IMG/VR virus record: IMGVR_UViG_3300037067_013349
Origin: an uncultured virus (IMG/VR IMGVR_UViG_3300037067_013349)
Taxonomy: Duplodnaviria; Heunggongvirae; Uroviricota; Caudoviricetes
Direction: 5' to 3' (one strand)
Length of the DNA stretch: 64,000 nt
The translations under genes and the position numbers were made by a program. Under the pieces are notes generated by a model. It did not search any database and was not told the origin of the DNA. It was given only the letters and a program-made list of their open reading frames with translations. Shown here piece after piece: positions 3,701-37,989 of the stretch (position 1 is its first letter; each line of letters opens with the position of its first letter).

Positions 3701-3727
3701 CACGTATTTGAAGACTAAGGAGCAACC

Positions 3728-4716: not shown

Positions 4717-5110
4717 GATAATTCTCTAGCAGTTGATCAATTAGAAAAGAAAGGCTGTTGCCATCACCAACATCATCACGGATATCTGATAGGATTCTCT
4801 CAATATCTATATCTTCCATCAGTTCCAATGTTTCATCGGGGCTGAGGAATTCTCCGCTATCTCCGCCCGGCTCATTGTCCTCAGGAGAGCCAAATAGACG
4901 TCTAGCTCTAAATATTACCGGAGCCACCCAAAGTTCCGAAATAAATGGAATTCCGAACGATCTGGCATCTATTTTAGTAGCGAATCTGGAAACAATTGGA
5001 GGAAAATTGTCGGAATTATTAGTACCGACAAATGATAAGATAATTTCTATATAGCCCCCATCATCGCATACTAGGATTGGTATCATAGATTGCGCTAACG
5101 AATCGAACAT
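4706..5110 (-). CDS. Hypothetical protein, paralog of 6535-6927
   Basis: Shared IPIL..LSFVG..D.FPP and YRG[YF] end. Confidence 0.75.
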   Translation of the reverse strand: MFDSLAQSMIPILVCDDGGYIEIILSFVGTNNSDNFPPIVSRFATKIDARSFGIPFISELWVAPVIFRARRLFGSPEDNEPGGDSGEFLSPDETLELMEDIDIERILSDIRDDVGDGNSLSFLIDQLLENYRGY

Positions 5111-5130
5111 GCTCTCCCCTAACTATATTG

Positions 5131-5550
5131 TTAATGTATGTGCAACTCAGATCTGATTCGCATAATTAACTGACCTAACTTATTTTCACCTACTCCGTTG
5201 CAAACTCCCCAATACGTATCACCCCACGTATTTCCCTCTATAATTTCAGAATTTCCGGTTGCGAGCAATAGTGCTTTTAGATCTCTCTGTCCAAACTTCT
5301 CCCTAAGCAAATCCTCCATTATTCTAAGTTTTATGTCGCTCCATCCTACTCTCAATTGCAATTTACTTCCTCTCCTCTTCGCCTTGCCAGCCGACAGCTT
5401 AGATATTTCTATCCTTTCTTGCAAATTGAGCGATTTCGCAGCCTGATATGCGTTTTCAACAGACGGATATACTATGGCTTCATATTTTATCCTGCACGGA
5501 TAAAAATTGGATAGAAATCGAAATTCATCAGAGAAACTAGAAATAATCAT
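5131..5550 (-). CDS. NADAR (YbiA-like) ADP-ribosyl hydrolase
   Basis: FLSNFY, YPSVENAYQAAK, LLATG, WGDTYWG, GENKLG. Confidence 0.92.
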   Translation of the reverse strand: MIISSFSDEFRFLSNFYPCRIKYEAIVYPSVENAYQAAKSLNLQERIEISKLSAGKAKRRGSKLQLRVGWSDIKLRIMEDLLREKFGQRDLKALLLATGNSEIIEGNTWGDTYWGVCNGVGENKLGQLIMRIRSELHIH

Positions 5551-5596
5551 GTTTTTATTGTAACGTCCCAAGTATTATAATACTAGGAGGACTATT

Positions 5597-5833
5597 ATGA
5601 GAAGGACATTCAAAGCAGGTGATAAAGTAGAATATATTGCTGGCCATGATAAATCATATATAGCTATCGTCACTGGAATACCAGATAACCCATGGCATCG
5701 CGGTTGCCCATTGCCTATTCTTTCTCTTACTTTCCAAAAAGAAAGCGGAGAGATCGTATTTGAAGAAAGAGTGCTGCCCATTTCAGTATCAGAATTTAAT
5801 TATCATGTCTACAGAGAGATAGGTAAGCGATGA
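5597..5833 (+). CDS. Hypothetical SH3/KOW-like protein
   Basis: AGGAGG RBS; FKAGDKVEY. Confidence 0.6.
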   Translation: MRRTFKAGDKVEYIAGHDKSYIAIVTGIPDNPWHRGCPLPILSLTFQKESGEIVFEERVLPISVSEFNYHVYREIGKR

Positions 5834-6285
5834 AAGAGCATGTGAGGCAACCGCCAGAAATAAAAACCTCTCAGCTGAAGTATATGGAAGGCGAAGATTC
5901 TACCAATTCTGTCGCAGTGGTTAATGGAGAGACAATAAGGATGTTGGTTACTGGTGGTAGAGATTATAATAATCGAGAAGAACTTTATCAGGTGCTAGAT
6001 AGTATTCATATTGAAAAACATATTGATGTGATCATTCACGGTGCAGCACGTGGAGCAGACATTCTGGCAGGCGATTGGGCGAGAGAACGTGGCGTAGAGG
6101 TCATTGCATGCCCTGCTGATTGGACGCACCATGGCAAAAATGCTGGACCGATTCGCAACAGACAAATGATTAAGCATGAGCCACATTTTGTTGTAGCATT
6201 CCCCGGCGGCCGTGGGACTGCAGACATGTTAAATGTGGCTAGAAAAGCTGGAATAGAAGTAATCATAAAAGTAGAACCAAGTTAA
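5830..6285 (+). CDS. YspA-like SLOG (DUF2493) protein
   Basis: LVTGGRDY, IIHGAARGAD, AGPIRNRQM, AFPGGRGT. Confidence 0.9.
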   Translation: MKEHVRQPPEIKTSQLKYMEGEDSTNSVAVVNGETIRMLVTGGRDYNNREELYQVLDSIHIEKHIDVIIHGAARGADILAGDWARERGVEVIACPADWTHHGKNAGPIRNRQMIKHEPHFVVAFPGGRGTADMLNVARKAGIEVIIKVEPS

Positions 6286-11388: not shown

Positions 11389-12540
11389 ATGGCTAAACGA
11401 TACAACTGGTTTGCTGGTATGACTCGTGAAGAGATTGAGGCTGCAATCGCCGCCAAGAAGGCTCTCTTGCTACAGATGATCCGTTCTGGCCAGCCACGGC
11501 CACGTAGGTATCAGGGCGACAAGGAAGAGAGGCATCTTGCTAGGTCAATGGAAGGCTATATAACCAAGGGTAGTTCTTCCTATGACTTCTCATTTGATAC
11601 TGCCATTCGTTCTGTTCCATCTGATTGGTTCGATGCCGACAGGTATGAAAGAGGGAACAAAGCACGAGAAGCCGTGTTTAAACTGGCGAGAAGCGGAGGG
11701 CCACGGCCAAAAGAGAAGACTGGCGATCCTTTTACGACAGCAATGTGCAGTCAGGTTCATTGGCACAGAGATGAACTCTCTAAGATACGCCCAGATTGGT
11801 ATGATCCGGACGCGGCTGATAGAGTCACCAAGATAAAGGAGGAGATACTGGCATTAGCACAATCTGGGGCCAAGCGACCAGTTAGACGACGTGCTGGTAG
11901 CCCAGAAATGGAGCGACTTGCTGAGGCTATAGATCGATTCACTGCTCCTTCTCAGCATGCTTATGATGCTGAACTTACCGCTAAATTGAGAGAAATCCGT
12001 CCCGATTGGTTTCGCGACACCAAGCTTGAGCTTGCACAACAACGAGACGATGACGCGAAGAAAATGTTCTTGGAGATGGCCAAGAACGGGAAGGCAAGGC
12101 CACATTATAAGAGACAACGTAAGCTTGCTCGGCTGCTGTCCAGGCTCATTAACGCCGATAAGGAATTCCATCGCCAGATAACCGAAGCTAATCCGGCCTG
12201 GACCGGAAACAGCAGAAATATGAAGAAAGTCTGGGAAAACCGTCCCAAATGGCCTAATAAAGAATATACCTACGCAGGCGAAACGCTGTCTATAAGAGAA
12301 TGGGCAATCAGGCTAGGCTGTAAAGAGAATACGTTATATCAATATCTGCTAAATCATTCCATTGAAGAAGCCGTGAAGCTGTACACACGCAAGAAGCTCA
12401 CTTGCGACGGTGAAACGATGACACGCACTCAATGGGCTGAAAAACTCGGAATTACAGTTTCTAGTCTGACCGGCAGACTTAAGTCTTATTCACCAGAAAT
12501 AGCACTATCGCCAGAGAATTGGGAGAATCGTAATAAGTGA
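11389..12540 (+). CDS. Repeat protein: four SG.RP..PDW repeats plus two HTH-like modules
   Basis: Internal repeats visible; YTYAGETLSIREWA and LTCDGETMTRTQWA. Confidence 0.8.
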   Translation: MAKRYNWFAGMTREEIEAAIAAKKALLLQMIRSGQPRPRRYQGDKEERHLARSMEGYITKGSSSYDFSFDTAIRSVPSDWFDADRYERGNKAREAVFKLARSGGPRPKEKTGDPFTTAMCSQVHWHRDELSKIRPDWYDPDAADRVTKIKEEILALAQSGAKRPVRRRAGSPEMERLAEAIDRFTAPSQHAYDAELTAKLREIRPDWFRDTKLELAQQRDDDAKKMFLEMAKNGKARPHYKRQRKLARLLSRLINADKEFHRQITEANPAWTGNSRNMKKVWENRPKWPNKEYTYAGETLSIREWAIRLGCKENTLYQYLLNHSIEEAVKLYTRKKLTCDGETMTRTQWAEKLGITVSSLTGRLKSYSPEIALSPENWENRNK

Positions 12541-16208: not shown

Positions 16209-17522
16209 TTATTTGCGACTGGTCTCTTTTATTCGGGCATAGACTCTGCCAATGGAGCATTTCCACTTCGCGGCCCATTCCTTTACTGTGTGCGTTTCGC
16301 CATCGAACGTATATTTCTTCTTAGTATGTTCCTTGAACCTGTCTTCGTTCAATGCTATTTCCACTGGGTATGATCGCAACCGCATATATAAACACGCAGT
16401 AGATTTCCCAAGCTTCCTAGCCCATTCGAACACCGTCATGGTCTCGCCGTCACACGTATAAACAGCATATTGTTTGCTCTTACGGCTTAATGCTGTTTCC
16501 GGTGATTCCGTTTCCAGACGCTTTCTTAGTGCTCTTACGCAAATTTTCAACAGCTTTGCCCACTCTTTGATTGTATGCGTCTCACCAGCACATGTATAGG
16601 TCTCCGTATCGGGCCTAACCACAGTGGTTTTAGATTTTGGAGTGGTTTTAGACTTGGGTTTTTGGCTGCGGCTCATCCATCCCACGTTTCCGCCGACCAA
16701 CAATATCTCGCTCGGATCGGTTATTCCGTTTTTGATTCTCCTTGCTATCGTCTGGTATGGCAATCCTAGTTCTACGCTCCATTTGAGCAGCGATTGTGTT
16801 TTGCCATTATGGGTGATCTTTTTAGGTGGATTCGGCTTTTTAAATAATTCCACCGGGTTTGTGATTCCATTCTTCAGCCTTAAACGCACTGTTCCTTCTA
16901 CCAAGCCAAATTCCACACACCATTCTGTAATCGACTGTTTCTTGCCGTTGTATTCAATCAGATGAGCACCGAAACGTGGCTGATATGATTTGGGGTTTAG
17001 AATTTCGCATGGCCGTAACCCACGGCAATAACGCCAATATATCGCCGTGGCTGGCATATTAATCTTACAGGCCCATTCCGATATCGTGTGCGTTTCCCCA
17101 TTGTGTGTTATTGTGATTGGCTCTTCTCTGCCCGGTGCCAATAGTTTACTGGCATCTGTGATACCTGCTTCTAGTCGTGTCCTTATTGTGATTGGCGTTA
17201 TTTTAAGTTCTTTGGCCCACTTCCAGATTGATTGGGTTCTTCCTTGGTATGTAATCTTCAAAGCATTTGCGGTAGAAGAATTTTGCGACCGTTTTGCTCG
17301 CCAAATGACTCTTGTTCGTATAGCAGATTCCGTTGCACCAACGCTTTTTGCCCGTTCCTTTACTGTTTTGGCCTCTCCATCGCATGTGCGTTTTTCTGGA
17401 GCGATGGGCAATCCGTTTTTAATCCGCAGGTAGATTAGTGCGGTACTGATGTTCAACTCATCAGACCATTGCCTGACGGTCTGAGTTTTTCCGTTATGCG
17501 TCACCAATATTTGAGATTTCAT
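16209..17522 (-). CDS. Tandem array of nine HTH-like DNA-binding modules
   Basis: [IY]T.[ND]G[KE]T.[TS]..[EK]WA..L repeats of the type seen after HNH homing-endonuclease domains; no nuclease motif. Confidence 0.75.
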   Translation of the reverse strand: MKSQILVTHNGKTQTVRQWSDELNISTALIYLRIKNGLPIAPEKRTCDGEAKTVKERAKSVGATESAIRTRVIWRAKRSQNSSTANALKITYQGRTQSIWKWAKELKITPITIRTRLEAGITDASKLLAPGREEPITITHNGETHTISEWACKINMPATAIYWRYCRGLRPCEILNPKSYQPRFGAHLIEYNGKKQSITEWCVEFGLVEGTVRLRLKNGITNPVELFKKPNPPKKITHNGKTQSLLKWSVELGLPYQTIARRIKNGITDPSEILLVGGNVGWMSRSQKPKSKTTPKSKTTVVRPDTETYTCAGETHTIKEWAKLLKICVRALRKRLETESPETALSRKSKQYAVYTCDGETMTVFEWARKLGKSTACLYMRLRSYPVEIALNEDRFKEHTKKKYTFDGETHTVKEWAAKWKCSIGRVYARIKETSRK

Positions 17523-19195: not shown

Positions 19196-19240
19196 TGGGT
19201 ACCGGGCGGGGGTCGCCCGGCTTTCACACAGGAGCTTGAC

Positions 19241-19366
19241 ATGCCACAACTTTCTGAGAGCCAGATCAACGAATTGGATCAGTACATCGGCGAGGTCTAT
19301 GCCGCTGGCGATGATTTCTGGACCCTTGAAGCCCTTGACGATCTGATCGAAGCCTATCTCTGGTAG
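19241..19366 (+). CDS. Acidic 41-aa protein (not in track)
   Basis: CACACAGGAG leader; MPQLSESQINELDQY...; 10 D/E, no K/R. Confidence 0.7.
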   Translation: MPQLSESQINELDQYIGEVYAAGDDFWTLEALDDLIEAYLW

Positions 19367-19385
19367 GTTGTTCACGGCAGGCCGA

Positions 19386-19414
19386 CTAATAGTCACCGCC
19401 CGTCGTGCTATAAA
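19386..19414 (+). promoter_or_regulatory. Conserved promoter
   Basis: CTAATAGTCACCGCCCGTCGTGCTATAAA. Confidence 0.8.
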
Positions 19415-19428
19415 TAGATCGTGCTTGT

Positions 19429-19474
19429 GGCCACCCCCGCCTATAGGTGTCGGGTGGGGGTGGCCTTTTCTTTC
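19429..19474 (+). terminator. Terminator-like hairpin immediately after promoter
   Basis: GGCCACCCCCGCC/GGTGGGGGTGGCC then TTTTCTTT. Confidence 0.65.
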
Positions 19475-19490
19475 CCCTTGGAGACGACAG

Positions 19491-19751
19491 ATGAACGATG
19501 ACAAAGAACTTACCGAAAAGGTGGCCCTACTCAACAAAGCCATCAAGAAGGACGGAATCGATGCCGTCCGTGAAGCCGTTTTGTGTTTCTGGATGGGCAG
19601 TTATGAGGACATGGGGCGTGGCGATATACTCGACGAAGTTGAGAAAATGCTCAAGGAAGGCTACAAAGGGACTGCGAACATGACGCCAGAGGAGTTGGCC
19701 GGTGAGATAAGCTTGGACGAAGCCCGCATAATATTGGAGGACAAGGAATGA
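19491..19751 (+). CDS. Hypothetical protein
   Basis: GGAG RBS, MNDDKELTEK. Confidence 0.7.
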   Translation: MNDDKELTEKVALLNKAIKKDGIDAVREAVLCFWMGSYEDMGRGDILDEVEKMLKEGYKGTANMTPEELAGEISLDEARIILEDKE

Positions 19752-19993
19752 ACGGGTACGCTGCCGAAATCAGCCTAGCCAAATCGCTTGGCTACACAGT
19801 CGACCGACAGAGAATGATTGGAGATCCACCGATATTCAGGCGATCGCGTGTCCCGCTTCCTGTCATTGCTATTTGGGAGTGTGTTCATGACTGTAAGGTC
19901 CAATGGGCGTGTGCCAACTTGGATAACGGGCATTGGACAAAACACCGCTACTATGGAGACCTGACGACGGCATTGAGAACGGAGGCGAAATAG
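19748..19993 (+). CDS. Hypothetical protein
   Basis: ATGA overlap. Confidence 0.65.
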   Translation: MNGYAAEISLAKSLGYTVDRQRMIGDPPIFRRSRVPLPVIAIWECVHDCKVQWACANLDNGHWTKHRYYGDLTTALRTEAK

Positions 19994-20003
19994 CCTCTTG
20001 TGC

Positions 20004-20018
20004 TTTCCATCCTGGAAA
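20004..20018. promoter_or_regulatory. TTTCCA-N3-TGGAAA palindrome
   Basis: Perfect copy 4 bp upstream of a -35. Confidence 0.7.
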
Positions 20019-20022
20019 GAAG

Positions 20023-20051
20023 TTAATAGTCACCGCCCGTCGTGCTACTAT
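20023..20051 (+). promoter_or_regulatory. Conserved promoter
   Basis: TTAATAGTCACCGCCCGTCGTGCTACTAT. Confidence 0.8.
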
Positions 20052-20086
20052 CGATCATCAACCTCGCTTCATTTGAAAGGACAAAC

Positions 20087-20440
20087 ATGACTCGCAACCG
20101 CATTTGCATCGTCCGTGAGACGCTTCTTGGCACGTGGCAGGAACGTCTTTTGCAGAAATTGGGAAAGGACTTCAAAGTTCAGCAGACCAACACCACCTTC
20201 TCGGTCATGAAGAGGTGCAAGGTCTTCCTTTGGACCAGGACACCGAAGACGGGATGGGTGGAAGTTGCCTACGTGGCAATCAAGGACGTCGAGAGCCTTC
20301 ACAAGGCATTGAATCCGGTGCTGACCGCTCACACGAAGGAAGATTTGGAGCGGCTGCAAACGAAGCTGGACAAAGAGCCGGTCGCCGACCAATGGCGAAT
20401 GGAAGTCCAACCCGATCCGACCGTTCCACCGAAGAAATAA
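20087..20440 (+). CDS. Hypothetical protein, paralog of 20896-21258
   Basis: WQERLLQKLGKDF vs WQDRLLSKLGRSF. Confidence 0.75.
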   Translation: MTRNRICIVRETLLGTWQERLLQKLGKDFKVQQTNTTFSVMKRCKVFLWTRTPKTGWVEVAYVAIKDVESLHKALNPVLTAHTKEDLERLQTKLDKEPVADQWRMEVQPDPTVPPKK

Positions 20441-20468
20441 CGCACACACAACACACAGGGAGAACATC

Positions 20469-20894
20469 ATGGCGTTAGTTCGAGGCAAGCCTTGGAAGGA
20501 ATACCAGTACAAACACGAAGATCCGAATCCGGTCATTTCGGATTGGAACGGCCAAGCCCTTATTGATTGCACCAAGAAAGGACTCGTCTTGCATATCAAG
20601 GAAAAGGGCGGGGCCGTCAAAAGAGTCCGAGTAAACGCAAGAACGCTTGATGGCTTGCGTAGCGTCATCTGCAGATACTACGGATGGTCACGATGGCACG
20701 ATGAAGCTGTTGAAAAAATTGCACGTGCCGAAGCGGAAAAGCAAGTCCGTGAAGAAATGGGCGACGAGATCAAGCGTCGAACGAGGGAATTGAAGAATCT
20801 CATCGAGTCCGGCATCGACGCGAAGTTGGCGGGCGTCAAGCTGCCCCGGCGAACGAACCGCAAAGCCGAAGGTCAACGGGAATTGGTTTTATAG
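20469..20894 (+). CDS. Hypothetical protein ending GQRELVL
   Basis: ACACACAGGGAG leader. Confidence 0.75.
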   Translation: MALVRGKPWKEYQYKHEDPNPVISDWNGQALIDCTKKGLVLHIKEKGGAVKRVRVNARTLDGLRSVICRYYGWSRWHDEAVEKIARAEAEKQVREEMGDEIKRRTRELKNLIESGIDAKLAGVKLPRRTNRKAEGQRELVL

Positions 20895-20895
20895 C

Positions 20896-21258
20896 ATGCT
20901 ACGAACCATTATTATCGATGATTCAGAGCCGAACTTGGTGAGTACCTCATGGCAAGATCGGCTATTGTCGAAGCTTGGTCGCAGTTTTGCCATCATAGAG
21001 GACGACAGGAAATACTACCTGATCAGAGGCAACAAAGTACTGGCGGAGTTTGAGAAGTACATCATCAAGAAACTCAATCCGATGACAAACCCGCTAGTTG
21101 TGGTTGAATCTATCAAAGTCCGAGACGAATTACACCGGCTCCTGAAACCAGACAACTTAACCCATTGGACGCCACGACGGAAGCTTTGGTCAATCCAAGT
21201 AGGGCTAACAAAAGATTGCGGATTCAGTTCGAGAGTGCGGTGGTATGCTAAACCATAG
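20896..21258 (+). CDS. Hypothetical protein, paralog of 20087-20440
   Basis: Shared motif. Confidence 0.7.
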   Translation: MLRTIIIDDSEPNLVSTSWQDRLLSKLGRSFAIIEDDRKYYLIRGNKVLAEFEKYIIKKLNPMTNPLVVVESIKVRDELHRLLKPDNLTHWTPRRKLWSIQVGLTKDCGFSSRVRWYAKP

Positions 21259-21583
21259 GAGTGCCACGATGTCCGATGGCCCGGAAGTTTTAGAACCGCT
21301 TGGACTCAACAAGTCAGAGATATATGCCAAATGCATGGAGGTCGATGGTGATGTAGTTTTCTCCATCAAGCAGACAAGCGGTACTGTTGAGATAGTCTTG
21401 AATCAGGCCCAATTAAGCGATCTCTACAGCGCGACGGCACGTGCCATGCATTGGTCGAGGATACGACGCGAAAGGCGTCAGAAAGCCGAATGGAAGAAAA
21501 GACAGGAGAAGCAGCAGAAATTGATCGTTCAGACTGGAGAGCGGCAGTTAATACTTCTCTCTCGCCGTGCTATAATGGAGTAA
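21245..21583 (+). CDS. Hypothetical protein
   Basis: ORF; likely start at MSDGPE. Confidence 0.65.
   Translation: MLNHRSATMSDGPEVLEPLGLNKSEIYAKCMEVDGDVVFSIKQTSGTVEIVLNQAQLSDLYSATARAMHWSRIRRERRQKAEWKKRQEKQQKLIVQTGERQLILLSRRAIME
21548..21576 (+). promoter_or_regulatory. Conserved promoter
   Basis: TTAATA-N17-TATAAT, CCGTGC. Confidence 0.85.
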
Positions 21584-21606
21584 ATCCAACACACAGGAGA
21601 GATGAC

Positions 21607-21816
21607 ATGATCGAACGCATCGAGCAGAAGCTTGACGTAATGGCCCTCGAAAGCAACGATGAGATTATCCGCGTCGTGGTCGAGGACGACAAGGGACGAC
21701 GCGCCATTGCTTTTCTTTCCGCGAAGCTTGTAAGCGGGCGTGTCAAATTCACGCTCGTCACGAAGAAAAACAAAGGCGAAGGGAAGGCATGCTCTACCGC
21801 CGACTGGATGTTGTAG
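21607..21816 (+). CDS. Hypothetical protein
   Basis: ACACACAGGAG leader. Confidence 0.7.
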   Translation: MIERIEQKLDVMALESNDEIIRVVVEDDKGRRAIAFLSAKLVSGRVKFTLVTKKNKGEGKACSTADWML

Positions 21817-22006
21817 TCGGCTGCGTGTGCTGAATCGGGCAAGCAGAGCAGATAATAAGCTGGCCTTGCTCGTACTTTATCGTTCCGATAGTGTTGCCTA
21901 CGCTGTCCTTCATCTTGGACAGCGTAGAGCCGATGATGACTACTTTTTCTTTCATCCCAGTTAAGATACCAGATTCGCTGCTTTGTGTCAAGTAGTCAAG
22001 CGGCGG

Positions 22007-22035
22007 TTAATATAGCCCGCTCCTCGTGCTATAAT
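22007..22035 (+). promoter_or_regulatory. Conserved promoter
   Basis: TTAATA-N17-TATAAT, TCGTGC. Confidence 0.85.
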
Positions 22036-22067
22036 GGGGTAGATTTCAAACACACAGGAGAGACGAC

Positions 22068-22364
22068 ATGGCCACGAAGTTTTCCCTTACCGTCGAAGCG
22101 TTGCCAGAGGAAGAAACCCCCGAACAGTCCGAGAAACGCACAAAGTCCGCTCCCGGCTACGCGAAAGCCGTCCGAGAGGTCAAGAAGACGGCAGAGGGCC
22201 GCTGGGGTTGGTGTGTGGTGAAGATTACCGCCAACGTGAAGGGAAAGGAAGGGACGGCATTCCTTAGCAACTGCTCTTACAAGAATGCCGAGGATTTCGT
22301 GAAGACGAGCGGCTATTTCCAACAGATGGTCGAGGAAGCAGTCGACGAAGCTGTCGGCGGTTGA
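22068..22364 (+). CDS. Hypothetical phage protein
   Basis: ACACACAGGAG leader; WGWCVVKITA...LSNCSY...GYF.QMV.EA. Confidence 0.75.
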   Translation: MATKFSLTVEALPEEETPEQSEKRTKSAPGYAKAVREVKKTAEGRWGWCVVKITANVKGKEGTAFLSNCSYKNAEDFVKTSGYFQQMVEEAVDEAVGG

Positions 22365-22373
22365 GTATTTATA

Positions 22374-22402
22374 TTAACAGAGGCCGCCTTCCGTGCTATT
22401 AT
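22374..22402 (+). promoter_or_regulatory. Conserved promoter
   Basis: TTAACA-N17-TATTAT, CCGTGC. Confidence 0.75.
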
Positions 22403-22435
22403 TGGGTAGGCGAAACAACACACAGGAGATCCATC

Positions 22436-22879
22436 ATGTCACATGTTGTGGTGATCGAATTGCAGGTCAAGGATCTGCAAGCCCTAGGCGAAGCCGCCAA
22501 GCAATTGGGTGGGGAACTCGTTATCGGTCAGATGACCTTCAAATGGTATGGTCGTTGGATGAACGACTACCACGGCCAAGACGCAGCCTATCGCAAGATG
22601 AACCCGGAAAAGTTCGGGAAATGCGATCATGCCGTGAAGCACCCGAAATGCAAGTATGAGATCGGCGTGGTCCGGCAAGAAGACGGCTCTTTCACCGTCT
22701 TGGCCGACGAATGGGGAGAAGGTGGCCTGCCCGCTGTCTTCGGTAAGGGCATGCACAAACTCAAGCAGCGTTATGGTGCTTGTGTCGCTGCCAAGACCAT
22801 GCGGCGTCAAGGCTTCTCTGTCAAAGAGGTCGACGACGAGGAGACCGGCTATCTCCGTCTCGTCTGTTCCCGCAATTAA
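22436..22879 (+). CDS. DUF1257 (Ycf35-like) protein
   Basis: MSHVVVIELQVKDLQAL..A, YEIGVV..DGSF...D.WG, LKQRY, GFSV.E. Confidence 0.8.
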   Translation: MSHVVVIELQVKDLQALGEAAKQLGGELVIGQMTFKWYGRWMNDYHGQDAAYRKMNPEKFGKCDHAVKHPKCKYEIGVVRQEDGSFTVLADEWGEGGLPAVFGKGMHKLKQRYGACVAAKTMRRQGFSVKEVDDEETGYLRLVCSRN

Positions 22880-22901
22880 CACACAGGAGGCGACCACAGT
22901 C

Positions 22902-23096
22902 ATGAGCGAACGAATCATTATCAGAATCGATCCCAGCGGCAATCCGACCATCAAAGTCGAAGGGCACCCCGGCCCCGGCTGCAAGAACATCACCAGAGCC
23001 GTCGAGAAGGCACTCGGAAGCGTCACGAGCGACAAGACAACGAACGAATACTCGTTGCCAGCACAAGCGGAGGCGTCACGCCATGTCAGCCATTGA
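22902..23096 (+). CDS. DUF2997 protein
   Basis: IRIDPSG...KVEG..GPGC..ITR.VEKALG.V..D..T.EY. Confidence 0.85.
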   Translation: MSERIIIRIDPSGNPTIKVEGHPGPGCKNITRAVEKALGSVTSDKTTNEYSLPAQAEASRHVSH

Positions 23097-23331
23097 CATT
23101 ATCTGTGCCCCCGATGGCACCTTGACCGCGATTTGGGACGACGGGCTTGCTCCACTTGCTTCCGAAGGTCAGGCTACGATTACACGTGTAAGCCACGTGG
23201 AGCCGACCGAGGAGGGCGAGTGGACCGCCGACATGAGTCCCATCAACGGCCCGGTTCTCGGCCCGTTTCCATTGCGTCGTGAAGCCCTCGACGCCGAGTT
23301 GGTTTGGCTACGTGAAACGATGGGGTTCTAA
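23083..23331 (+). CDS. Conserved hypothetical of the DUF1257/DUF2997 module
   Basis: ITRVSHVEP...W.ADMSP..GPVLGPF..R.EALDAE..WL. Confidence 0.75.
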   Translation: MSAIDIICAPDGTLTAIWDDGLAPLASEGQATITRVSHVEPTEEGEWTADMSPINGPVLGPFPLRREALDAELVWLRETMGF

Positions 23332-23333
23332 TC

Positions 23334-23639
23334 ATGATGGAAGCAGAAATCAAACGGGTGCTTGAGTGTCTTGATCGCCTTTTCGAAGAGAACGAATCTG
23401 GCGAAACGCTCCTAGGGCGAATTGAAGCCATCCTGCAGGAAGCGATAGGCAAGGATGAAAAGGTCATCAGAGAGATAGTGCAAAATTTGCCGTCGTCTGA
23501 ATCGGAGCTACTCCGATTCCACATTCTTGATAGCTCTCGTGACAACTTTCGCGCTTTGATGGGCTATCTCGATATCTTCCGAGACCAGCTTGAAACTGCC
23601 CGGACCACACTATCGACTTGTGTTGGTGACGACGATTAA
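23334..23639 (+). CDS. Hypothetical helical protein
   Basis: ORF. Confidence 0.65.
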   Translation: MMEAEIKRVLECLDRLFEENESGETLLGRIEAILQEAIGKDEKVIREIVQNLPSSESELLRFHILDSSRDNFRALMGYLDIFRDQLETARTTLSTCVGDDD

Positions 23640-23664
23640 TGTGGGTCGGCTGCCGTGCTATTAT
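23636..23664 (+). promoter_or_regulatory. Conserved promoter
   Basis: TTAATG-N17-TATTAT, CCGTGC. Confidence 0.75.
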
Positions 23665-23710
23665 TTAGCTGAGGGCGGGAGGTCCGCCCCAAACACACAG
23701 GAGCACGATA

Positions 23711-25282
23711 ATGTTATCATTTACCGAGCAGTTTATTGCTGCGCGTCGAGTTGGCGTCCCTCTTATCGGCATCGAGTCCAGCGATCCCGCTGCGACGATG
23801 AAGACCCTCGCAAATGAATGCTGCGATATTCCTCAAGCTGCCCCTCTCCTGCTCTGGAACTCGGCTAGCGGTATCGTCGGCCTAAATCCGGCTGGTGAAA
23901 GGGCTGCAGCCGTCCTCAATACCGACGCAGAAATCAATCTGCCCTTTGTTTTCCTGACGGCCATCGCCGACATCAAAGGTGCTCCCAAGCATTCCATCAT
24001 CGGCATGCAAGCCGCCGACGATTGGTTCGACAAGCCGACTATTCGACAGGCGATTTGGAATCTTCGCGACAACTTCAAAAAGACGGGCCGTACCCTCGTC
24101 ATGCTGGCCGAGGTCATCCAACTGCCGTCAAGCCTCAAGAACGACGTCATTATCATTGAGGAGCCGTTGCCTGACGAGGAGCAATTGGCGGGTTGCGTCA
24201 AGAAACTCGATACGCAAGCCAGTCAGTGCGACTGTGCCGGACACAATACCGCTTGCAAAAAATGTGGTGGTACCGGCATCAAGACCAAACGGCCCCTATG
24301 TTCCGAGGAAACGGTTGGGCGCGTCGTTGAGGCAGTCAAAGGCTTGCCATACTTCGGAGCCGAACAGGTCGTAGCCATGGCCCTCCGTGGCACTCCCATT
24401 GCAGGACAAAAGCCGGAAAGTTGCATCGACCTTGAACATTGCTGGACTGCCAAGCGCAAACAGGTCGAGCAGACGAGGGGGCTTTCGATACATCGCGGCG
24501 GTGAAACCTTCGCCGATCTGGGTGGGTTAAAGCAAGTCAAGGAATACCTGACCCGAATCATGACGGGCCGGAAAGCCCCAAAGCTTATCGTCTGGTTGGA
24601 TGAAATTGAAAAAACCGGACTCGCGAATCGGGGAGACACTAGCGGCGTCAATCAGGACCAAGAGGGGACTCTATTGTCGTGGATGGAAGACTACGACGTT
24701 TTCGGCGTTATGCTTCTTGGTGTCCCTGGTTGCGGCAAGTCGGCCATCTGCAAAGCTGTGGGTGCTCAATTCGATCGCGTCGTCATCCGGATCGACCTTG
24801 GTTCGATGCAAGGATCTTTAGTCGGTCAAAGCCAGAACAACATCCGGGCCGCGTTGAAGGTCGTACAGGCTATCGGTGGCTCTGATACGCTCTGGTTGGC
24901 GACCAGCAATAGCATCAGCGGACTATCGTCAGCGATGAAGTCACGATTTACTGACACGTTCTTCTTTGACCTGCCACCGATCGAAGAGCGTCAGCCGATT
25001 TGGAAAGTATGGCTTGACAAATATGGGCTGAAGGAAAAGACGACACCCAACGATGAAGGGTGGGTCGCCCGCAACATCAAGAAATGCTGCGATAAAGCCT
25101 TCCGCATGGATGTCCCACTCGAAGAGGCTGCCGCCTACATCACACCGGTCGGCTTGACAGACCGGGAAGATATTCAATCATTGCGAAAATCGGCGGACGG
25201 TCGTTATCTGTCCGCCAGCCATACGGGCGTTTACAAGATTCCGAAGGATATCGAGCCGGAACGAGCATTGAACATCGATTAG
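23711..25282 (+). CDS. Ycf46-like AAA+ ATPase with permuted Walker B/Walker A order
   Basis: FADLGGL, IVWLDEIEK, GVPGCGKS, LVGQSQ, LATSN, SRF..FFFDLP. Confidence 0.9.
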   Translation: MLSFTEQFIAARRVGVPLIGIESSDPAATMKTLANECCDIPQAAPLLLWNSASGIVGLNPAGERAAAVLNTDAEINLPFVFLTAIADIKGAPKHSIIGMQAADDWFDKPTIRQAIWNLRDNFKKTGRTLVMLAEVIQLPSSLKNDVIIIEEPLPDEEQLAGCVKKLDTQASQCDCAGHNTACKKCGGTGIKTKRPLCSEETVGRVVEAVKGLPYFGAEQVVAMALRGTPIAGQKPESCIDLEHCWTAKRKQVEQTRGLSIHRGGETFADLGGLKQVKEYLTRIMTGRKAPKLIVWLDEIEKTGLANRGDTSGVNQDQEGTLLSWMEDYDVFGVMLLGVPGCGKSAICKAVGAQFDRVVIRIDLGSMQGSLVGQSQNNIRAALKVVQAIGGSDTLWLATSNSISGLSSAMKSRFTDTFFFDLPPIEERQPIWKVWLDKYGLKEKTTPNDEGWVARNIKKCCDKAFRMDVPLEEAAAYITPVGLTDREDIQSLRKSADGRYLSASHTGVYKIPKDIEPERALNID

Positions 25283-25302
25283 TCCTCCGATACCTGTGTG
25301 TT

Positions 25303-25342
25303 CTCCCGGCAGGAGGTTGCTCGTCGTGACCCCTGCCGGGAG
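25303..25342 (+). terminator. Hairpin after ATPase
   Basis: CTCCCGGCAGG/CCTGCCGGGAG stem. Confidence 0.55.
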
Positions 25343-25353
25343 TCTCTATATCA

Positions 25354-25617
25354 ATGATAGTTGATCACGATACCGTTGAGCAATTCAAGGCGCTAGGGGC
25401 CGTTTCCATTGGCCGTATCATGCTGCCAAAGCGGTCTTATCAATATGGCGTCATACTCGAACCGTCTAACGATATCGTCCACTTCTTCGCTGCCGATGGT
25501 CTAGAAATCGGCTATTGGACGGTTATCTCGCACCGATTTGGTCCGGTCATTTTCGAGCAGCGTCGAAACTGGCATCCATCTATCAAGGCCGGATTGCTCT
25601 TAGAGCCTGTCAGTTAA
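25354..25617 (+). CDS. Hypothetical protein
   Basis: ORF. Confidence 0.6.
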   Translation: MIVDHDTVEQFKALGAVSIGRIMLPKRSYQYGVILEPSNDIVHFFAADGLEIGYWTVISHRFGPVIFEQRRNWHPSIKAGLLLEPVS

Positions 25618-25642
25618 TAGTCACCGCTTGTTGTGCTACTAT
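25614..25642 (+). promoter_or_regulatory. Conserved promoter
   Basis: TTAATAGTCACCGCTTGTTGTGCTACTAT. Confidence 0.75.
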
Positions 25643-25689
25643 CGGGCATGGTGGTTACTATTTCTCGGCTTTGTTTGGGAGCTTGTGCT

Positions 25690-25914
25690 ATGCTGTACGC
25701 TGATATGCTGGCCGCGTGTCGTGAGCGTGGATTGATCGACGATGCCACTGCCTTGGTGTTCCAACATCGCGTGGACGTCTGGGTCGTGTTCGACAGGCTG
25801 ATTGACGATTATCGGCTGTTCGTCGGCCCTCACGGCAACTATGTCGTCGGAGAGGGGAAGCGGTATCAAATCGTCAAGGTGGTTAGACATAAGCCCCGCA
25901 AGAGGGATAAGTAA
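25690..25914 (+). CDS. Hypothetical protein
   Basis: GGGAG RBS. Confidence 0.6.
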   Translation: MLYADMLAACRERGLIDDATALVFQHRVDVWVVFDRLIDDYRLFVGPHGNYVVGEGKRYQIVKVVRHKPRKRDK

Positions 25915-25946
25915 ATCGATCAATATAGGTGCTACATTGATCGAGA

Positions 25947-25975
25947 TTAATAATTCCCATGATTCGTGCTACTAT
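25947..25975 (+). promoter_or_regulatory. Conserved promoter
   Basis: TTAATA-N17-TACTAT, TTCGTGC. Confidence 0.8.
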
Positions 25976-26014
25976 TTTCCAGACGGCAACAATAGTACAC
26001 ACAGGAGCAATGAA

Positions 26015-26974
26015 ATGACCGCTACCGAACAAATCCAGCAAGCCCAAGAAGAGGACAAGATCGATATCCTTAGCAAGACGACGTGCCTCTTGTTACGGTT
26101 CCACAAGACTGGCCTGATTCGCAAGGGCAATATCTCCAAAATCCAGACGGAAGCCAACAAAAAGCGTCTTGGATTGCACAAGAAAATCCTCACCAGTGAG
26201 AACTACGACAGCATGATGCTTTGTGCCCGTGACTGCCGCCGATACGCAGTCAAGAGACAGGTCCCCGGTTCCCCCTTTGCAGAAGGGACTCATCTTGTGC
26301 CGTGCCCGCTCGTCGATGACCTGAATGAAAAAATTGCCAACGCAACAGCGGCCTACAACAGATGGGCCGACCTGTTCGTTGCCGAGTACGAGTCACTGGT
26401 CAAAGAGGCCAAAATCGAACTCAAAGACCAGTTCGACCCCAGCAATTATTACGACGTGAGCACGGAAGCTGGTCGACTTGCCCTTCGCTCCAAGTTTTGG
26501 GTTGAGCGTCGTTGGTTCGACTGGTCGCCAACGAACGAGTCAAAGGTCAGCAGTGTGATTGCTGAACAGGAACGGAAGCAGCAAGCAGACGAAATCAAGA
26601 ATATGGCCATGGAGGTCAAAGCCGCTTTGCGACTGGGGCTTAAGAGGCTGGTTGACCATCTGGTTGAGCGGTTGACACCCGGCCCCGGTGGGAGCCGCAA
26701 GGTCTTCATGGCTTCCACCATTACGAAAATCGTCGAATTTCTGGAGTTGTTCTCTGCCCGCAATGTCTGTGGTGACCGAGAATTGGCCTTGCTGGCCGAC
26801 CAAGCCAAAGAAGTACTTGATGGTCAAACCCCTGAATCGATCAGAGGGAACGACGAAGTACAAACAGCCGTCGCTGCACGTATGTCAGAGGTAAAGGAGA
26901 ATCTTGATAAGCTTCTCCGAGATATGCCCGAACGGGTTATCGACCTGGATGACGACGACGATGACGACGAGTGA
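26015..26974 (+). CDS. DUF3150-like helical protein
   Basis: ACACACAGGAG leader; GTHLVP, F..EY..L..EAK.EL...FDP.NY, LV.HL.ERL, RKVF..S.I. Confidence 0.65.
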   Translation: MTATEQIQQAQEEDKIDILSKTTCLLLRFHKTGLIRKGNISKIQTEANKKRLGLHKKILTSENYDSMMLCARDCRRYAVKRQVPGSPFAEGTHLVPCPLVDDLNEKIANATAAYNRWADLFVAEYESLVKEAKIELKDQFDPSNYYDVSTEAGRLALRSKFWVERRWFDWSPTNESKVSSVIAEQERKQQADEIKNMAMEVKAALRLGLKRLVDHLVERLTPGPGGSRKVFMASTITKIVEFLELFSARNVCGDRELALLADQAKEVLDGQTPESIRGNDEVQTAVAARMSEVKENLDKLLRDMPERVIDLDDDDDDDE

Positions 26975-29326: not shown

Positions 29327-31354
29327 TTAGGGAAGTTCGCGCTCACCGTCTAAAATGGCCCGAAGAGTACCAACGGCGATGATTTTGACGCCGAGTTCTT
29401 CGGCCTTCTTCGTCTTATTCGATGATGATGTTGGGTCCTTCTGGACGAGATAATTAAGCCCTTTGCTGACGCCACTCTTGATGATGCCGCCTCGTGCAAC
29501 CACTTCATCGAGAAAATCGCGGGTGCCAGTGAAGCAGAACGTTGATCCGGCGATAGCCTTTGGCCCATCATCTACATCCGCCACAATAGTCGGTTGCTGC
29601 ACTTGCGTGTGCGGCTGGACGGTGACGCCGACGTCGAGCAGGTCTTCGATGATAGGCCACGCCTTGTTGAGTCCATCCGTAATCGTCGTCCGCATCGTGT
29701 CGCCAGGAATTAGCGTCAGCTTTTCTGTGTCGAGCCAGTCATCAAGCGTGGTCAGCCCCATCTCATTGGCGACGATTTCGGCCCGACGCTTACCAAGAAG
29801 AGGAACACCGAGAGCACCGAGGAAGCTACACAGTGGAAGCGATTTGGATTTCTCGATTTCCTGCAGCAGTGCAGTCGTCCGACTGTTGCCAAGTCTGCTC
29901 TTGCTTTCGCCGATAGGCAGATCAATAAGCTGCTCTGCCGTCAATCGATAAAGGTCAGCAGGAGTCTTGACGAGTTCGTCAGTAAGAGCCTTGAGAACGC
30001 CGTCGCCAACGCCCATAATGCCAGCATCACGAATGTAATGCTTGACCTTGCCGATGCTCTGGGCTGGACAATCGTTGCCACTACAAAGCGTGACAGCACC
30101 TTCCTTGTCTCTCACTGTCCTGGTTGTTGGAGCACCACAGACCGGACACGTAGTCGGCTCTGCAATCGGTTGCCGGTCTGCTGGCATCCCGACAACGCGG
30201 ACGATTTTCGGGATGACGTCGCCCTGACGAGCAATCTCGACTATATCGCCGATGGCGACATGGGCTGCTGATGGATTCTCACTTGCTTCATTCCAGTTGT
30301 TGAGCAAGACATTCGTCACCGTCACGCCGCCGACAAACACCGGTTCAAGAACAACAGTAGGAATGATGGCACCGGTGTGACCAACAGTAATAGTCACATC
30401 GGTGACGCGAGTCATCGCCTTTTGCGTGGCAAATTTAACCGCACGGCCATACTTCGGTCTTAATGCGTCTTTGCGGTCCTTGGTGATACGCTTCTGCATC
30501 TCGACGTTATCAATCATGACGACGAGTCCGTCAATTTCAAACAGCAGAGAATCTCGCTGGCCTTCCACATCGGCGAAGTAGGCATTCATTTTCTCTACCA
30601 CTTCATCGCGCGTGCCGGTGAGCGTAACAGACTGCACCGGTGAAAATCCCAGCTTCTCTAACGTCTTGAACTTCGCAGTAAGCGATGGAAATTCGACACG
30701 TTGATCAATGCAGTTGAATGCGACGAAGCGGATTAGTTCGTTTTGTGTGCCGTCGATTCGACCGATGATGCCGCTGCCGACGTTGCGTGGATTGGTGAGC
30801 GTTGGATCTTGTTCCTTCAGTTGGCCGAATTCGGCCTTGTATAGGATTGCCTCACCACGGATAGTACCGGTGAATGGAACCGGTAAAATAGTCGGTGCAC
30901 CTGCCCATTTTACAGCGTTTGCTGTTAGTGATTCACCGATTTCACCGTCGCCTCGACTAATCGCTTCCATTAAAATTCCCTTATCATAGATAAGGGCAAT
31001 GCTGTTGCCGTCCATCTTCAAAGAAACATTGATGGCGGCATTCTCGACACCCAACAAAGCAAGAGTTTTGTCATACCAATCAGCAAAGCCGTTGATGCCG
31101 TCGTCCGTATTGTTGAGCGAACCCATCGGGATCGTATGGGTTCGCTTGTCTCTCATATCAGCCGGAGAGTACGGGGTGCCGACACGGGTAAGACGAGGGT
31201 CAGCAGGACAGATTACCCGCAACTCACTCATCATTCCTTCATATTCATCGTCATTGACGGGCGACTCGCACCCCGGCGTATAGTAAAGTTGCGCTGCACG
31301 ATCGATAGCTGACCGCAATTGTGCGAGCCTAGCTTTTTCGCTTAATTCTGCCAT
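29327..31354 (-). CDS. ligA: NAD-dependent DNA ligase
   Basis: YY..D.EY domain Ia, KMDG, SRGDG.IGE, NPRN, IDGLV, CPVC..C Zn finger, HhH, BRCT (FCFTG...SGVSK). Confidence 0.97.
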   Translation of the reverse strand: MAELSEKARLAQLRSAIDRAAQLYYTPGCESPVNDDEYEGMMSELRVICPADPRLTRVGTPYSPADMRDKRTHTIPMGSLNNTDDGINGFADWYDKTLALLGVENAAINVSLKMDGNSIALIYDKGILMEAISRGDGEIGESLTANAVKWAGAPTILPVPFTGTIRGEAILYKAEFGQLKEQDPTLTNPRNVGSGIIGRIDGTQNELIRFVAFNCIDQRVEFPSLTAKFKTLEKLGFSPVQSVTLTGTRDEVVEKMNAYFADVEGQRDSLLFEIDGLVVMIDNVEMQKRITKDRKDALRPKYGRAVKFATQKAMTRVTDVTITVGHTGAIIPTVVLEPVFVGGVTVTNVLLNNWNEASENPSAAHVAIGDIVEIARQGDVIPKIVRVVGMPADRQPIAEPTTCPVCGAPTTRTVRDKEGAVTLCSGNDCPAQSIGKVKHYIRDAGIMGVGDGVLKALTDELVKTPADLYRLTAEQLIDLPIGESKSRLGNSRTTALLQEIEKSKSLPLCSFLGALGVPLLGKRRAEIVANEMGLTTLDDWLDTEKLTLIPGDTMRTTITDGLNKAWPIIEDLLDVGVTVQPHTQVQQPTIVADVDDGPKAIAGSTFCFTGTRDFLDEVVARGGIIKSGVSKGLNYLVQKDPTSSSNKTKKAEELGVKIIAVGTLRAILDGERELP

Positions 31355-34911: not shown

Positions 34912-34986
34912 AGACCATCCTGTGGTGGTGTATTTGAAAATATAGCGGTAGTCAGATGTCTGCGCCTATCTTTGGCTGCGGAGCGG

Positions 34987-35015
34987 TTAAGCCAGATATG
35001 CATTCGTGCTATAAT
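34987..35015 (+). promoter_or_regulatory. Conserved promoter
   Basis: TTAAGC-N17-TATAAT, TTCGTGC. Confidence 0.8.
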
Positions 35016-35064
35016 GAAGTATCATCGGGCCACCCCGCTAATCCATCAAACACACAGGTATACA

Positions 35065-36276
35065 ATGGTCGCCGAAGTCCGTGATTATCAGGTTCGCTTA
35101 GTTGATAAGACGGTCAAGCTGTACCACAACGGCTTCAAGTCAGTGCTTATCAACTCTCCCACCGGTTCTGGCAAGTCCTACATGGGCTTGCAAATCGTCA
35201 AGCTACTCCAAGACGAATTCAACATCGGTGCGGCATGGGTAGCCATGCGTCGAAACCTGCTCAAACAGATTCAGGGAGAGAACGACAAGCTTGACGTCGG
35301 TGCAGAAATAGTGCCGCTATCGATGTTCAACCACAACCCACCTACAGTCGACCAATATGGACGTCCCATCAAAATCGTCGTCCTAGACGAGAGCCAACAT
35401 GACCCGGCTGGCTCGATGGCCAACATCTATAATATTCTTCGCCCCCGCTGGATTCTTGGCATGACGGCCACTCCGTTTCGGACCGACCGCATGCGACTGT
35501 CGTTTGACAAGATTATCCGTGATATCGGAATCCATCAACTAATCGAGTCAGGCTACCTGTCGCAGTACCACCAATTCACCATTCCTTCTTGGAACGTTGA
35601 TGAAGTGGTTAATTGCTACCTGCGTGAGCCGGAACGATGGGGCAAGTCGGTCTTCTATTGGTTCACATATGCTGATGCTCTCGAATGCACGGAGAGGTTA
35701 CGTGCGAGTGGCGTACGTGCCGAGTTAGTGACTGCCCAAACGGATCGCGATTCCCAACTGGAACGATTTGAGAGTGGTGAAACGACCTGCCTCGTCAACA
35801 TGCAGATTCTCACCGAGGGCTTCGATTCGCCGTCGCTCAAGACCGTTTTCGTCCGCGATTCACAACGTGGCCCGACCATCCAAATGTGTGGTCGTGTCTT
35901 CCGAAGATACCCCGGCATCGAGTTCAAGCAGATCGTGCAGAGCAAGATGACCCATTGGCCGATCCAACGAACTGCCAAGCCCGCATACTCCGCCGTTTGG
36001 CTGCCAGAGGAGAACGATTGGCGTAGCTATGCACAGAGCAAAGCCATCGAACAAGTATCATTCCGTGTCTGCATGACACTCGCCCATACAAAAACTTCGA
36101 TGCCCGACTTCATCACAAAGAAGATGGAGAAGAAGCACCGAACTCGCCGCCAAAACAATGAGCAGCACACCGACCGTACTACAGAGTCTGGGTTGGCACG
36201 TCGGAATGATGGAGGTATGATCGATGACCGCCCCGGCTGGGTGGGTGGTTTCGGTGGCGGTGCTATCATTCATTAG
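35065..36276 (+). CDS. SF2 (DEAD/DEAH-like) helicase
   Basis: RDYQ, SPTGSGKS, DESQH, GMTATP.R.D, LTEGFD, QMCGRVFR. Confidence 0.93.
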   Translation: MVAEVRDYQVRLVDKTVKLYHNGFKSVLINSPTGSGKSYMGLQIVKLLQDEFNIGAAWVAMRRNLLKQIQGENDKLDVGAEIVPLSMFNHNPPTVDQYGRPIKIVVLDESQHDPAGSMANIYNILRPRWILGMTATPFRTDRMRLSFDKIIRDIGIHQLIESGYLSQYHQFTIPSWNVDEVVNCYLREPERWGKSVFYWFTYADALECTERLRASGVRAELVTAQTDRDSQLERFESGETTCLVNMQILTEGFDSPSLKTVFVRDSQRGPTIQMCGRVFRRYPGIEFKQIVQSKMTHWPIQRTAKPAYSAVWLPEENDWRSYAQSKAIEQVSFRVCMTLAHTKTSMPDFITKKMEKKHRTRRQNNEQHTDRTTESGLARRNDGGMIDDRPGWVGGFGGGAIIH

Positions 36277-37902: not shown

Positions 37903-37987
37903 GGCCGTGTGGTGGAATGGCAGACACTAGGGATTTAAAATCCCTTGCTCATAACAGAGCGTGCCGGTTCGAATCCGGCCACGGCTA
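37903..37987 (+). tRNA. trnL: tRNA-Leu (UAA)
   Basis: GGCCGTG/CACGGCT acceptor, AGGGA-TTTAAAA-TCCCT anticodon arm, long variable arm, GGTTCGAATCC; CCA not encoded. Confidence 0.93.
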
Positions 37988-37989
37988 CT

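Follow-up and report, generated by a model that had tools for sequence, protein, structure and literature searches.

A Ycf46-like AAA ATPase of an uncultured virus with Walker B ahead of Walker A in its core

The core of classical AAA ATPases is a sheet of five parallel strands in the order 5-1-4-3-2 with one nucleotide site, and the order of Walker A, Walker B and sensor 1 along the chain is treated as fixed in AAA+ and related P-loop ATPases and is assumed by annotation pipelines and motif searches. Among P-loop NTPases, the circularly permuted GTPases of the YlqF/YjeQ type have a changed chain order of the motifs with the fold kept. Here we describe a gene in a 64,000-nucleotide stretch of DNA (the window) from an uncultured virus of the Caudoviricetes (IMG/VR IMGVR_UViG_3300037067_013349), encoding a Ycf46-like AAA ATPase in which the Walker B block precedes Walker A. 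The permutation of the YlqF/YjeQ enzymes is circular and belongs to the GTPase class, whereas that of the window protein is non-circular and belongs to the AAA+ class. A precedent for a non-circular topology change in a phage protein is that reported for the HK97 capsid fold of Bordetella phage BPP-1 (PMC3863775); the capsid protein is structural and has no catalytic site, unlike the window ATPase.

Comparison with known structures found that the C-terminal domain of the window protein matches the classical AAA domains of p97/VCP D2 (3cf0_A), Vps4 (4d82_B, 6bmf_B) and spastin (6p07_B), with Z 16.5-17.2, a root-mean-square deviation (rmsd) of 2.2-3.6 Å and 201-215 residues aligned, and that the two-domain layout of the whole model resembles p97/Cdc48 D1-D2 (Z ~18, ~400 residues aligned). 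The window protein differs from these structures, to which it is 14-21% identical, in the chain order of beta3-alpha3, in an N-domain without nucleotide motifs, and in pore loop 1, which is aliphatic (SLVG) where theirs is aromatic. Normal-order Ycf46-like ATPases, named COG0464 'SpoVK/Ycf46/Vps4' in JGI records, are homologous to it over the full length, including the degenerate N-domain, and share its Walker A, Walker B, GD(S/A)G, sensor 1 and RF motifs as well as its neighbour genes. Two of them serve here as examples: a 516 aa protein from an Ardenticatenia metagenome-assembled genome (MAG), at L004:5962-7512, and that of locus L016 on the chromosome of Desulfosarcina variabilis (NZ_CP159846.1). 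The long linker before beta1 (..FSERARRFGLPEPR) of the normal-order relatives is absent from the window protein.

Two relatives with the same swap and motifs come from cultured sources and both are without the cysteine insert described below: gp103 of Tunturi_3, a cultured Tunturiibacter phage with a complete genome (XOB77284.1, annotated 'ATPase', 34.5% identity), and WP_197443293.1 of the cultured planctomycete Lignipirellula cremea ('AAA family ATPase', 'ycf46' in UniRef, 44% identity). Their annotations are silent on the rearrangement, and the word 'ATPase' is absent from the searched main-text passages of the paper on the Tunturi phages. No paper on a permuted AAA or P-loop core, or on a Walker B motif ahead of Walker A, was found in the literature searched, which covered few subscription journals.

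Motif order of the core and its conservation in the family

Sequence analysis revealed an open frame in which FADLGGL (residues 267-273) is followed by LIVWLDEIEK (292-301, nt 24584-24613), then by GDTSG and LLSWMED, and then by the P-loop. The Walker B motif LIVWLDE occupies residues 292-298 (nt 24584-24604), with the acids D297 and E298. The Walker A stretch LLGVPGCGKS (residues 334-344, nt 24710-24742) lies within GVMLLGVPGCGKS, and its P-loop GVPGCGKS (337-344, nt 24719-24742) carries K343 and S344. After the P-loop come SLVGQSQ, ALKVVQAI, TLWLATSN (N400), KSRF (R412) and FFFDLP. The protein thus has Walker A, Walker B, a sensor 1 asparagine where beta4 ends and an arginine where alpha4 ends, but their sequence along the chain departs from the classical one of Walker A, then Walker B, then sensor 1. 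In the window family, Walker A follows Walker B at a distance of 44-47 residues, whereas in the normal-order relatives Walker A lies 54-55 residues ahead of Walker B. A second hhhD[DE] string between alpha2 and beta4 is absent from the window protein.

The Pfam profile PF00004 matched the whole protein with 56 bits (cut-off 21.2), in two stretches. In a scan of fragments, residues 274-328 matched profile positions 44-95 (E 2.5e-4, 21.9 bits) and residues 333-385 matched positions 1-53 (E 1.8e-9); because these fragments match out of order, the two halves of the core are reversed. The normal-order L004 protein, with the motifs GVQGSGKS...LVGASE...APCVVWLDEVEK...SDAGT...FLTWMQEK...FVVATAN, was aligned by BLASTP with residues 13-506 of the window protein (E 4e-30), its Walker B block appearing as an insertion between alpha2 and beta4 of the latter. 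The Walker B segment of the window protein (residues 293-327) aligned with L004 residues 336-372 (42% identity, E 7e-6) and its Walker A block aligned upstream of these, while N400 and R412 aligned with ATAN and GRF. In tblastn against loci L001-L009, coverage starts at residues 2-13. The L004 alignments show that two adjacent blocks, beta1-P-loop-alpha1-beta2-alpha2 of ~62 residues and beta3-pore loop 2-alpha3 of ~42 residues, have been exchanged, with alpha0 and everything from beta4 onward fixed. An exchange of beta3-alpha3 with beta1-alpha1-beta2-alpha2 in which both ends stay in place is a non-circular permutation.

The swap is common to the family. A word-indexed search with 7,999 scored candidates yielded 645 relatives at E <= 1e-3. 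The swapped order was found in 18 of 18 aligned relatives (42-76% identity), and D297, E298, G337, G340, K343, N400 and R412 were invariant in 108 of 108 relatives. Searched against 1.84 billion cluster representatives, a profile of these 108 rows had 30,574 matches at E <= 1e-3, of which 3,544 reached E <= 1e-30; among the 150 matches listed, all with at least 545 bits, 144 aligned in one collinear stretch and 6 (688-896 aa) in two. A joint alignment was made of 257 full-length rows of 440-640 aa, a few of them duplicated between loci and proteins. Every row was collinear with the window protein; E298, G340, K343, N400 and R412 were present in 257/257, and D297 in 254/257, with E in the other 3. 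A strict regular expression classed 195 of 259 proteins as permuted, 0 as normal and 64 as unparsed (motif variants or inserts). A locus scan of one genome per species, with a 6-sequence alignment as query, gave 25 loci. The 75 fetched loci (25 genomic, 49 viral and 1 GenBank phage) comprised 15 permuted and 60 normal, after the classes of L034 (permuted) and of L018, L051, L015, L024, L025, L058 and L073 (normal) had been corrected by eye.

These data agree with an earlier note on this DNA, made from the letters alone, which had claimed the motif order and its coordinates, an open frame with intact catalytic residues, and a non-circular exchange of two blocks. Recomputation gave the same order and coordinates; the frame of 523 aa is open, with E298, K343, N400 and R412 in every full-length row; and the exchange is real, as seen in the Pfam pieces, the L004 comparison and all close relatives examined. 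The out-of-order HMM (hidden Markov model) and BLAST pieces and the homologs with the same swap that it predicted were likewise found, the latter in all 18, 108 and 257 rows of the three alignments.

The gene is covered by public contigs from two studies, and none of the listed sources is an RNA run. A piece of 285 nt (X2 record 13, nt 24560-24844, 0 differences), from another study than the best-covering one, spans the Walker B/Walker A junction at 24700/24701, and a 534-nt piece (X1 record 6, nt 24769-25302) spans the junction 24886/24887 into beta4. Among the pieces listed, none runs across the alpha0/Walker B junction at 24574/24575 with 31 nt to either side.

Structure of the permuted core

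AlphaFold2, run with the 108-row alignment, gave a confident monomer model (predicted local distance difference test, pLDDT, 92.1; predicted template modelling score, pTM, 0.82), as the note had proposed to obtain. The model has helix 274-284, strand 292-296, helix 313-327, strand 331-337, helix 343-353, strand 357-361, helix 371-389, strand 393-399, helix 407-412 and strand 415-419; its strand-helix units run in the chain order 3, 1, 2, 4, 5, which matches the swap. Residues 256-499 were superposed on p97 D2 (3cf0_A) with Z 16.8 and an rmsd of 2.2 Å over 201 aligned residues. The ~43 residues that remained unaligned equal the moved block in size, and a structure aligner that follows sequence order has to omit one of two swapped blocks.

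Covariation was analysed by mean-field direct coupling analysis (DCA) of residues 262-440 (257 rows, effective sequence number Neff 206, 15,051 pairs). The moved strand was found coupled to beta4 (I299-A397, rank 11; V294-W395, rank 12; E300-S399, rank 17) and to beta2 (V294-I361, rank 21). The pair L292-G389 (rank 2) connects the moved strand at its start with alpha2 at its end, two points that are directly joined in normal-order proteins, and D316-G364 (rank 3) couples the start of alpha3 to pore loop 1. For the sheet order 2-3-4-1-5, 13 of 289 cells between neighbouring strands were in the top 1%, compared with 2 of 416 between non-neighbours (odds ratio 9.75, Fisher p = 3.3e-4). Because the AlphaFold secondary structure and the covariation fit, the relocated strand most likely lies between beta2 and beta4, its usual spatial place.

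According to the rewiring that we propose, a 42-residue unit of beta3 (with Walker B), pore loop 2 and alpha3 would have moved from behind alpha2 to before beta1. The sheet order 2-3-4-1-5 would be kept and three loop connections alone would change, each by one or two strands, with alpha3 feeding beta1 instead of its neighbour beta4 and alpha2 feeding beta4 instead of its neighbour beta3. The re-routing may be a geometrically small change; in the model the alpha3-beta1 and alpha2-beta4 linkers have 3 residues each. D297/E298, K343/S344, N400 and R412 would still form one ATP site.

The N-terminal domain (residues 1-255), modelled alone, reached a pLDDT of 95.8. Nearly all listed matches in a structure search of 48,161 chains, independent of Foldseek, were AAA+ domains; the best was Vps4 (4d80_A; Z 11.7, rmsd 3.3, 198 aligned over model residues 1-255), followed by p97, spastin, FtsH and clamp-loader subunits. 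The domain has no Walker motifs, carries IESSDPAAT at the P-loop position and has the normal chain order; Pfam gave no match on residues 1-261 even at E up to 10. Because this domain is AAA-like, without Walker motifs and in normal order, the window protein appears to be a two-tier AAA protein with a degenerate D1 and an active permuted D2. Its CDC...CKKCGGTG stretch (residues 173-189) had been described in the note as a DnaJ-like zinc insert. The insert is present in 8 of the 18 aligned relatives, and P0045, P0052 and P0071 have two full CxxCxGxG motifs at the site. In the window protein the second motif alone is complete and Pfam gives no match; the likeness to DnaJ thus holds by motif only, and the insert is probably a zinc knuckle.

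The rewiring of the classical AAA core is real and conserved, and the invariance of the catalytic residues suggests that it is probably functional. We consider it very likely that the window protein is an active Ycf46-like two-domain AAA ATPase whose beta3-alpha3 unit was moved in a single event, with the three-dimensional site kept. It would hydrolyse ATP and assemble as a ring. A three-copy prediction (residues 256-523 with 2 ATP and 2 Mg), run without controls, gave a score of 0.01 and a mark of 0.42 and has no bearing on ring formation. Several points weigh against this reading. The PF00004 match of the Walker B block is barely over the cut-off (21.9 versus 21.2 bits), and the 47-residue block, too short as a phmmer query, found no AAA chain in the PDB, its best hits (E 0.5) being unrelated proteins. 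Two non-neighbour strand pairs, beta1-beta2 (rank 24) and beta2-beta4 (rank 30), have one top-1% cell each. The covariation data are thin (Neff 206 for 179 columns) and blind to the difference between contacts within and between chains, and they share overlapping alignments with AlphaFold, so that the two are not mutually independent.

The weak match of the block's own sequence to AAA could also mean that the upstream hhhhDE block does not work as Walker B but survives for another reason, as a relic or linker element, and that ATP is bound without classical hydrolysis. This is improbable: E298 is invariant and D297 nearly so in relatives down to ~34-40% identity, the beta3 position would otherwise be empty, the block is 42% identical to a genuine Walker B block, that of a homolog with normal order, and its strand covaries with beta4 and beta2. 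Invariance of sensor 1 and of the arginine would moreover be hard to explain without hydrolysis. Slightly less credit still is due to a strand exchange, in which the beta3-alpha3 unit inserts in the sheet of a neighbouring subunit and the active site is built from two chains. The block does hang on the inter-domain linker, and covariation cannot tell intra-chain from inter-chain contacts, but in the monomer model strand 292-296 is paired inside its own chain at a pLDDT of ~91-95, and the short 3-residue linkers of the model would suit a closed domain made of one chain. A chimeric or mis-joined contig that made the unusual order in the window alone, conceivable for a metagenome contig with junction 24574/24575 unbridged among the listed pieces, is excluded for practical purposes by the same order in 257/257 relatives from many sources, in 15 independent loci and in a complete cultured phage genome, and by the pieces bridging the other two junctions, one of them from another study.

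Origin, gene module and phage context

To build a tree, the cores were cut in four blocks, which were aligned separately and joined in normal order, giving 32 permuted rows (14 loci, the window and 17 proteins) and 55 normal ones; the loci left unparsed by the regular expression (L034, L015, L024, L025, L058 and L073) were left out. Permuted and normal rows were split by one branch with a Shimodaira-Hasegawa-like approximate likelihood ratio test (SH-aLRT) value of 100, that is, by one change. Because the normal order is, as far as is known, universal elsewhere in AAA+ and the tree has this one branch, the permuted state is derived and a single origin is enough. We infer that the permutation arose once from a normal-order ancestor. 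Two points tell against this as well, since the block cutting differs by class and may inflate the split, and the root of the tree was not inferred.

The ancestor would have stood inside an AAA/DUF1257/DUF2997/DUF3150-like module of phages and other mobile elements, from which the permuted form would have spread through a large family. A search for intermediates found hhhD[DE] in the 65 residues ahead of Walker A in 0 of 55 normal-order open reading frames (ORFs), and a Walker B-like string before beta4 in 1 of 257 permuted rows (P0210); no intermediate form was seen in these sets. The simplest path may be that the A-B segment was duplicated in tandem and that the first A and the last B were then lost.

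Inteins typically sit in essential active sites, and in six relatives (P0002, P0003, P0068, P0080, P0084 and P0089) the Walker A loop was found to be interrupted by inserts 165-359 residues long, at a site corresponding to window nt 24730/24731, between G340 and C341. In P0002, P0003, P0084 and P0089 the insert follows G340 and starts with Cys, and in P0068 and P0080 it is placed after C341. Like inteins, the six inserts all have HN or HNS as their last residues, and precomputed Pfam intein, Hint or LAGLIDADG domains were present in five of the proteins, with none for P0084. The letters that follow a contig end at 24730 in run X1 translate, as read by eye, to the C-terminal end of the P0002/P0003 insert, and because of this intein-bearing and intein-free alleles seem to coexist in one sample. 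In P0126 and P0234 (896 aa) the match to the profile is split in two near profile position 370-375 and not at the P-loop, which may mark a second insertion site.

The coordinates of the gene, its domains and its neighbours are given in Table 1. With HMMs built for the analysis, DUF1257, DUF2997 and DUF3150-like genes were found in 13, 11 and 14 of the 16 permuted loci (window included) and in 16, 14 and 10 of the 60 normal-order loci, respectively, absences being soft as some loci are short. In Tunturi_3, DUF1257 and DUF2997 adjoin the permuted ATPase gene. Normal-order proteins with module genes belong mostly to clades apart from the larger viral clade, whose loci are without module genes except L023. 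In L001, from a Nitrospira MAG, the permuted ATPase adjoins a TraD/TraG-like coupling-protein ATPase (3333-4742, -) and a TSCPD-domain protein (4902-5612, +); because of this neighbourhood, the module seems to travel also on elements that are not obviously phage.

The pair of CCGTGCTATTAT and CACAGGAG that precedes the AAA gene is also found ahead of the DUF1257 gene. CACAGGAG occurs 10 times in the window versus 1.8 expected, a number reached in 0 of 100 shuffles. Seven + strand copies fall between 19.2 and 26.0 kb (19227-26007), and four lie just before the DUF1257, DUF2997, AAA and DUF3150-like starts. The extended -10-like CCGTGCTAT(T/A)AT has three copies (21565, 22391 and 23653), each 19-32 nt before CACAGGAG. 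Both are probably the phage's own start signals for the gene block.

Viral contigs of 269-388 kb carry the closest relatives (71-79% identity). The contig to which the window belongs has 167,790 bp, and the rest of the window has phage-type genes and no housekeeping genes. Since the closest relatives are on large viral contigs and the window genes are of phage type, the gene belongs to a large phage. PADLOC gave for the ATPase only partial generic AAA matches, to IetA (E 1e-10) and TRIP13, both at residues 332-383; none of 7 tested neighbours matched and no defence-system model fits. NCBIfam has no specific family for the module, PHROGs matches were to families of unknown function alone (best phrog_8638, E 1.5e-32), and no mechanism for DUF1257, DUF2997 or Ycf46 was found in the parts of the literature available. 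The likeliest role, put forward tentatively, is that of a ring-shaped ATP-driven protein remodeller or unfoldase acting with the small DUF1257 and DUF2997 proteins, which might work during establishment or replication of the phage or element.

A block at ~18000-40000 has a G + C content of 0.50-0.55, versus 0.41-0.48 on both sides. Besides the AAA module, this block contains an NAD-dependent DNA ligase (29327-31354, -), a ResIII/Helicase_C helicase (34972-36276) and a tRNA-Leu(TAA) (37903-37988); the phage genome may be mosaic here or may have acquired the segment. Collagen triple-helix repeats (Pfam Collagen, 11 stretches, E 1.1e-175) make up most of a 2,224-aa ORF (47066-53740, -), which has a G + C content of ~0.58 versus 0.41-0.46 around it. 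The D123, NADAR, YAcAr/SLOG and RlaP-type genes of the window would seem unexpected in a phage.

Table 1. Positions of the ATPase gene, its parts and other features in the window
Feature	Position	Strand	Basis or remark
Whole gene: two-domain Ycf46-like AAA ATPase, permuted C-terminal AAA core	23711..25282	+	523 aa
N-terminal domain, residues 1-255, AAA+-like, degenerate D1	23711..24475	+	fold model, structure search
Four-cysteine insert C173, C175, C182, C185 (CKKCGGTG), N-domain lid	24224..24304	+	sequence, relatives
alpha0 / N-linker of AAA core (FADLGGL..KEYL)	24494..24574	+	
Relocated block: beta3 with Walker B, pore-loop-2 region GDTSG, alpha3 LLSWMED	24575..24700	+	
beta1, P-loop, alpha1, beta2, pore loop 1 SLVG, alpha2	24701..24886	+	
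beta4 with sensor 1 (LWLATSN, N400), alpha4 with R412 (arginine-finger position), beta5 (FFFDLP)	24887..24970	+	
Helical lid and C-terminal tail	24971..25279	+	
DUF1257 (Ycf35-type) gene	22436..22879	+	PF06868, 32.9 bits vs cut-off 22.2
DUF2997 gene	22902..23096	+	PF11211, 38.4 bits vs cut-off 24.1
DUF3150-like gene	26015..26974	+	own HMM; no Pfam match of window copy; relative in L001, 23.7 bits vs cut-off 24.9; weak link
CCGTGCTATTAT, extended -10-like	23653-23664	+	
CACAGGAG, Shine-Dalgarno-like	23696-23703	+	7 nt ahead of AAA gene ATG
D123-family protein	1206-2078	+	E 2.7e-23
NADAR domain	5131-5571	-	
YAcAr/SLOG domain	5830-6285	+	
HNH-endonuclease-like ORF	11389-12540	+	
HNH-endonuclease-like ORF	16209-17522	-	phrog_3377, 4 stretches, E 3.8e-49
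RlaP-type nucleotidyltransferase	54653-55720	+	

Meaning for the AAA+ family

The rearrangement explains why members are annotated only as 'AAA family ATPase' or 'hypothetical'. That it is adaptive, and not merely tolerated, seems to us rather unlikely. On that account, Walker B, pore loop 2 and alpha3 would sit directly on the linker from the N-terminal pseudo-ATPase domain and alpha3 would end in the inter-subunit signalling position, so that the N-domain could pull mechanically on the catalytic glutamate and pore loop 2, and binders of the N-domain, perhaps DUF1257 or DUF2997, could exert a like pull. If true, the adaptive rewiring would be a new way to gate an AAA motor.

That a large natural family shares a non-circular swap and keeps its catalytic residues indicates that the fold tolerates re-threading. 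Since one and the same gene module has both normal-order and permuted sisters, these offer a ready natural experiment for studies of folding and motor mechanism, and the permuted members of Tunturi_3 (host Tunturiibacter psychrotolerans) and Lignipirellula cremea, being from cultured sources, are testable at the bench. If the adaptive account is true, the family would also be a natural demonstration that the P-loop core of the ASCE (additional strand, catalytic E) class folds with another strand order, which would be useful for the design of split or re-permuted motors.

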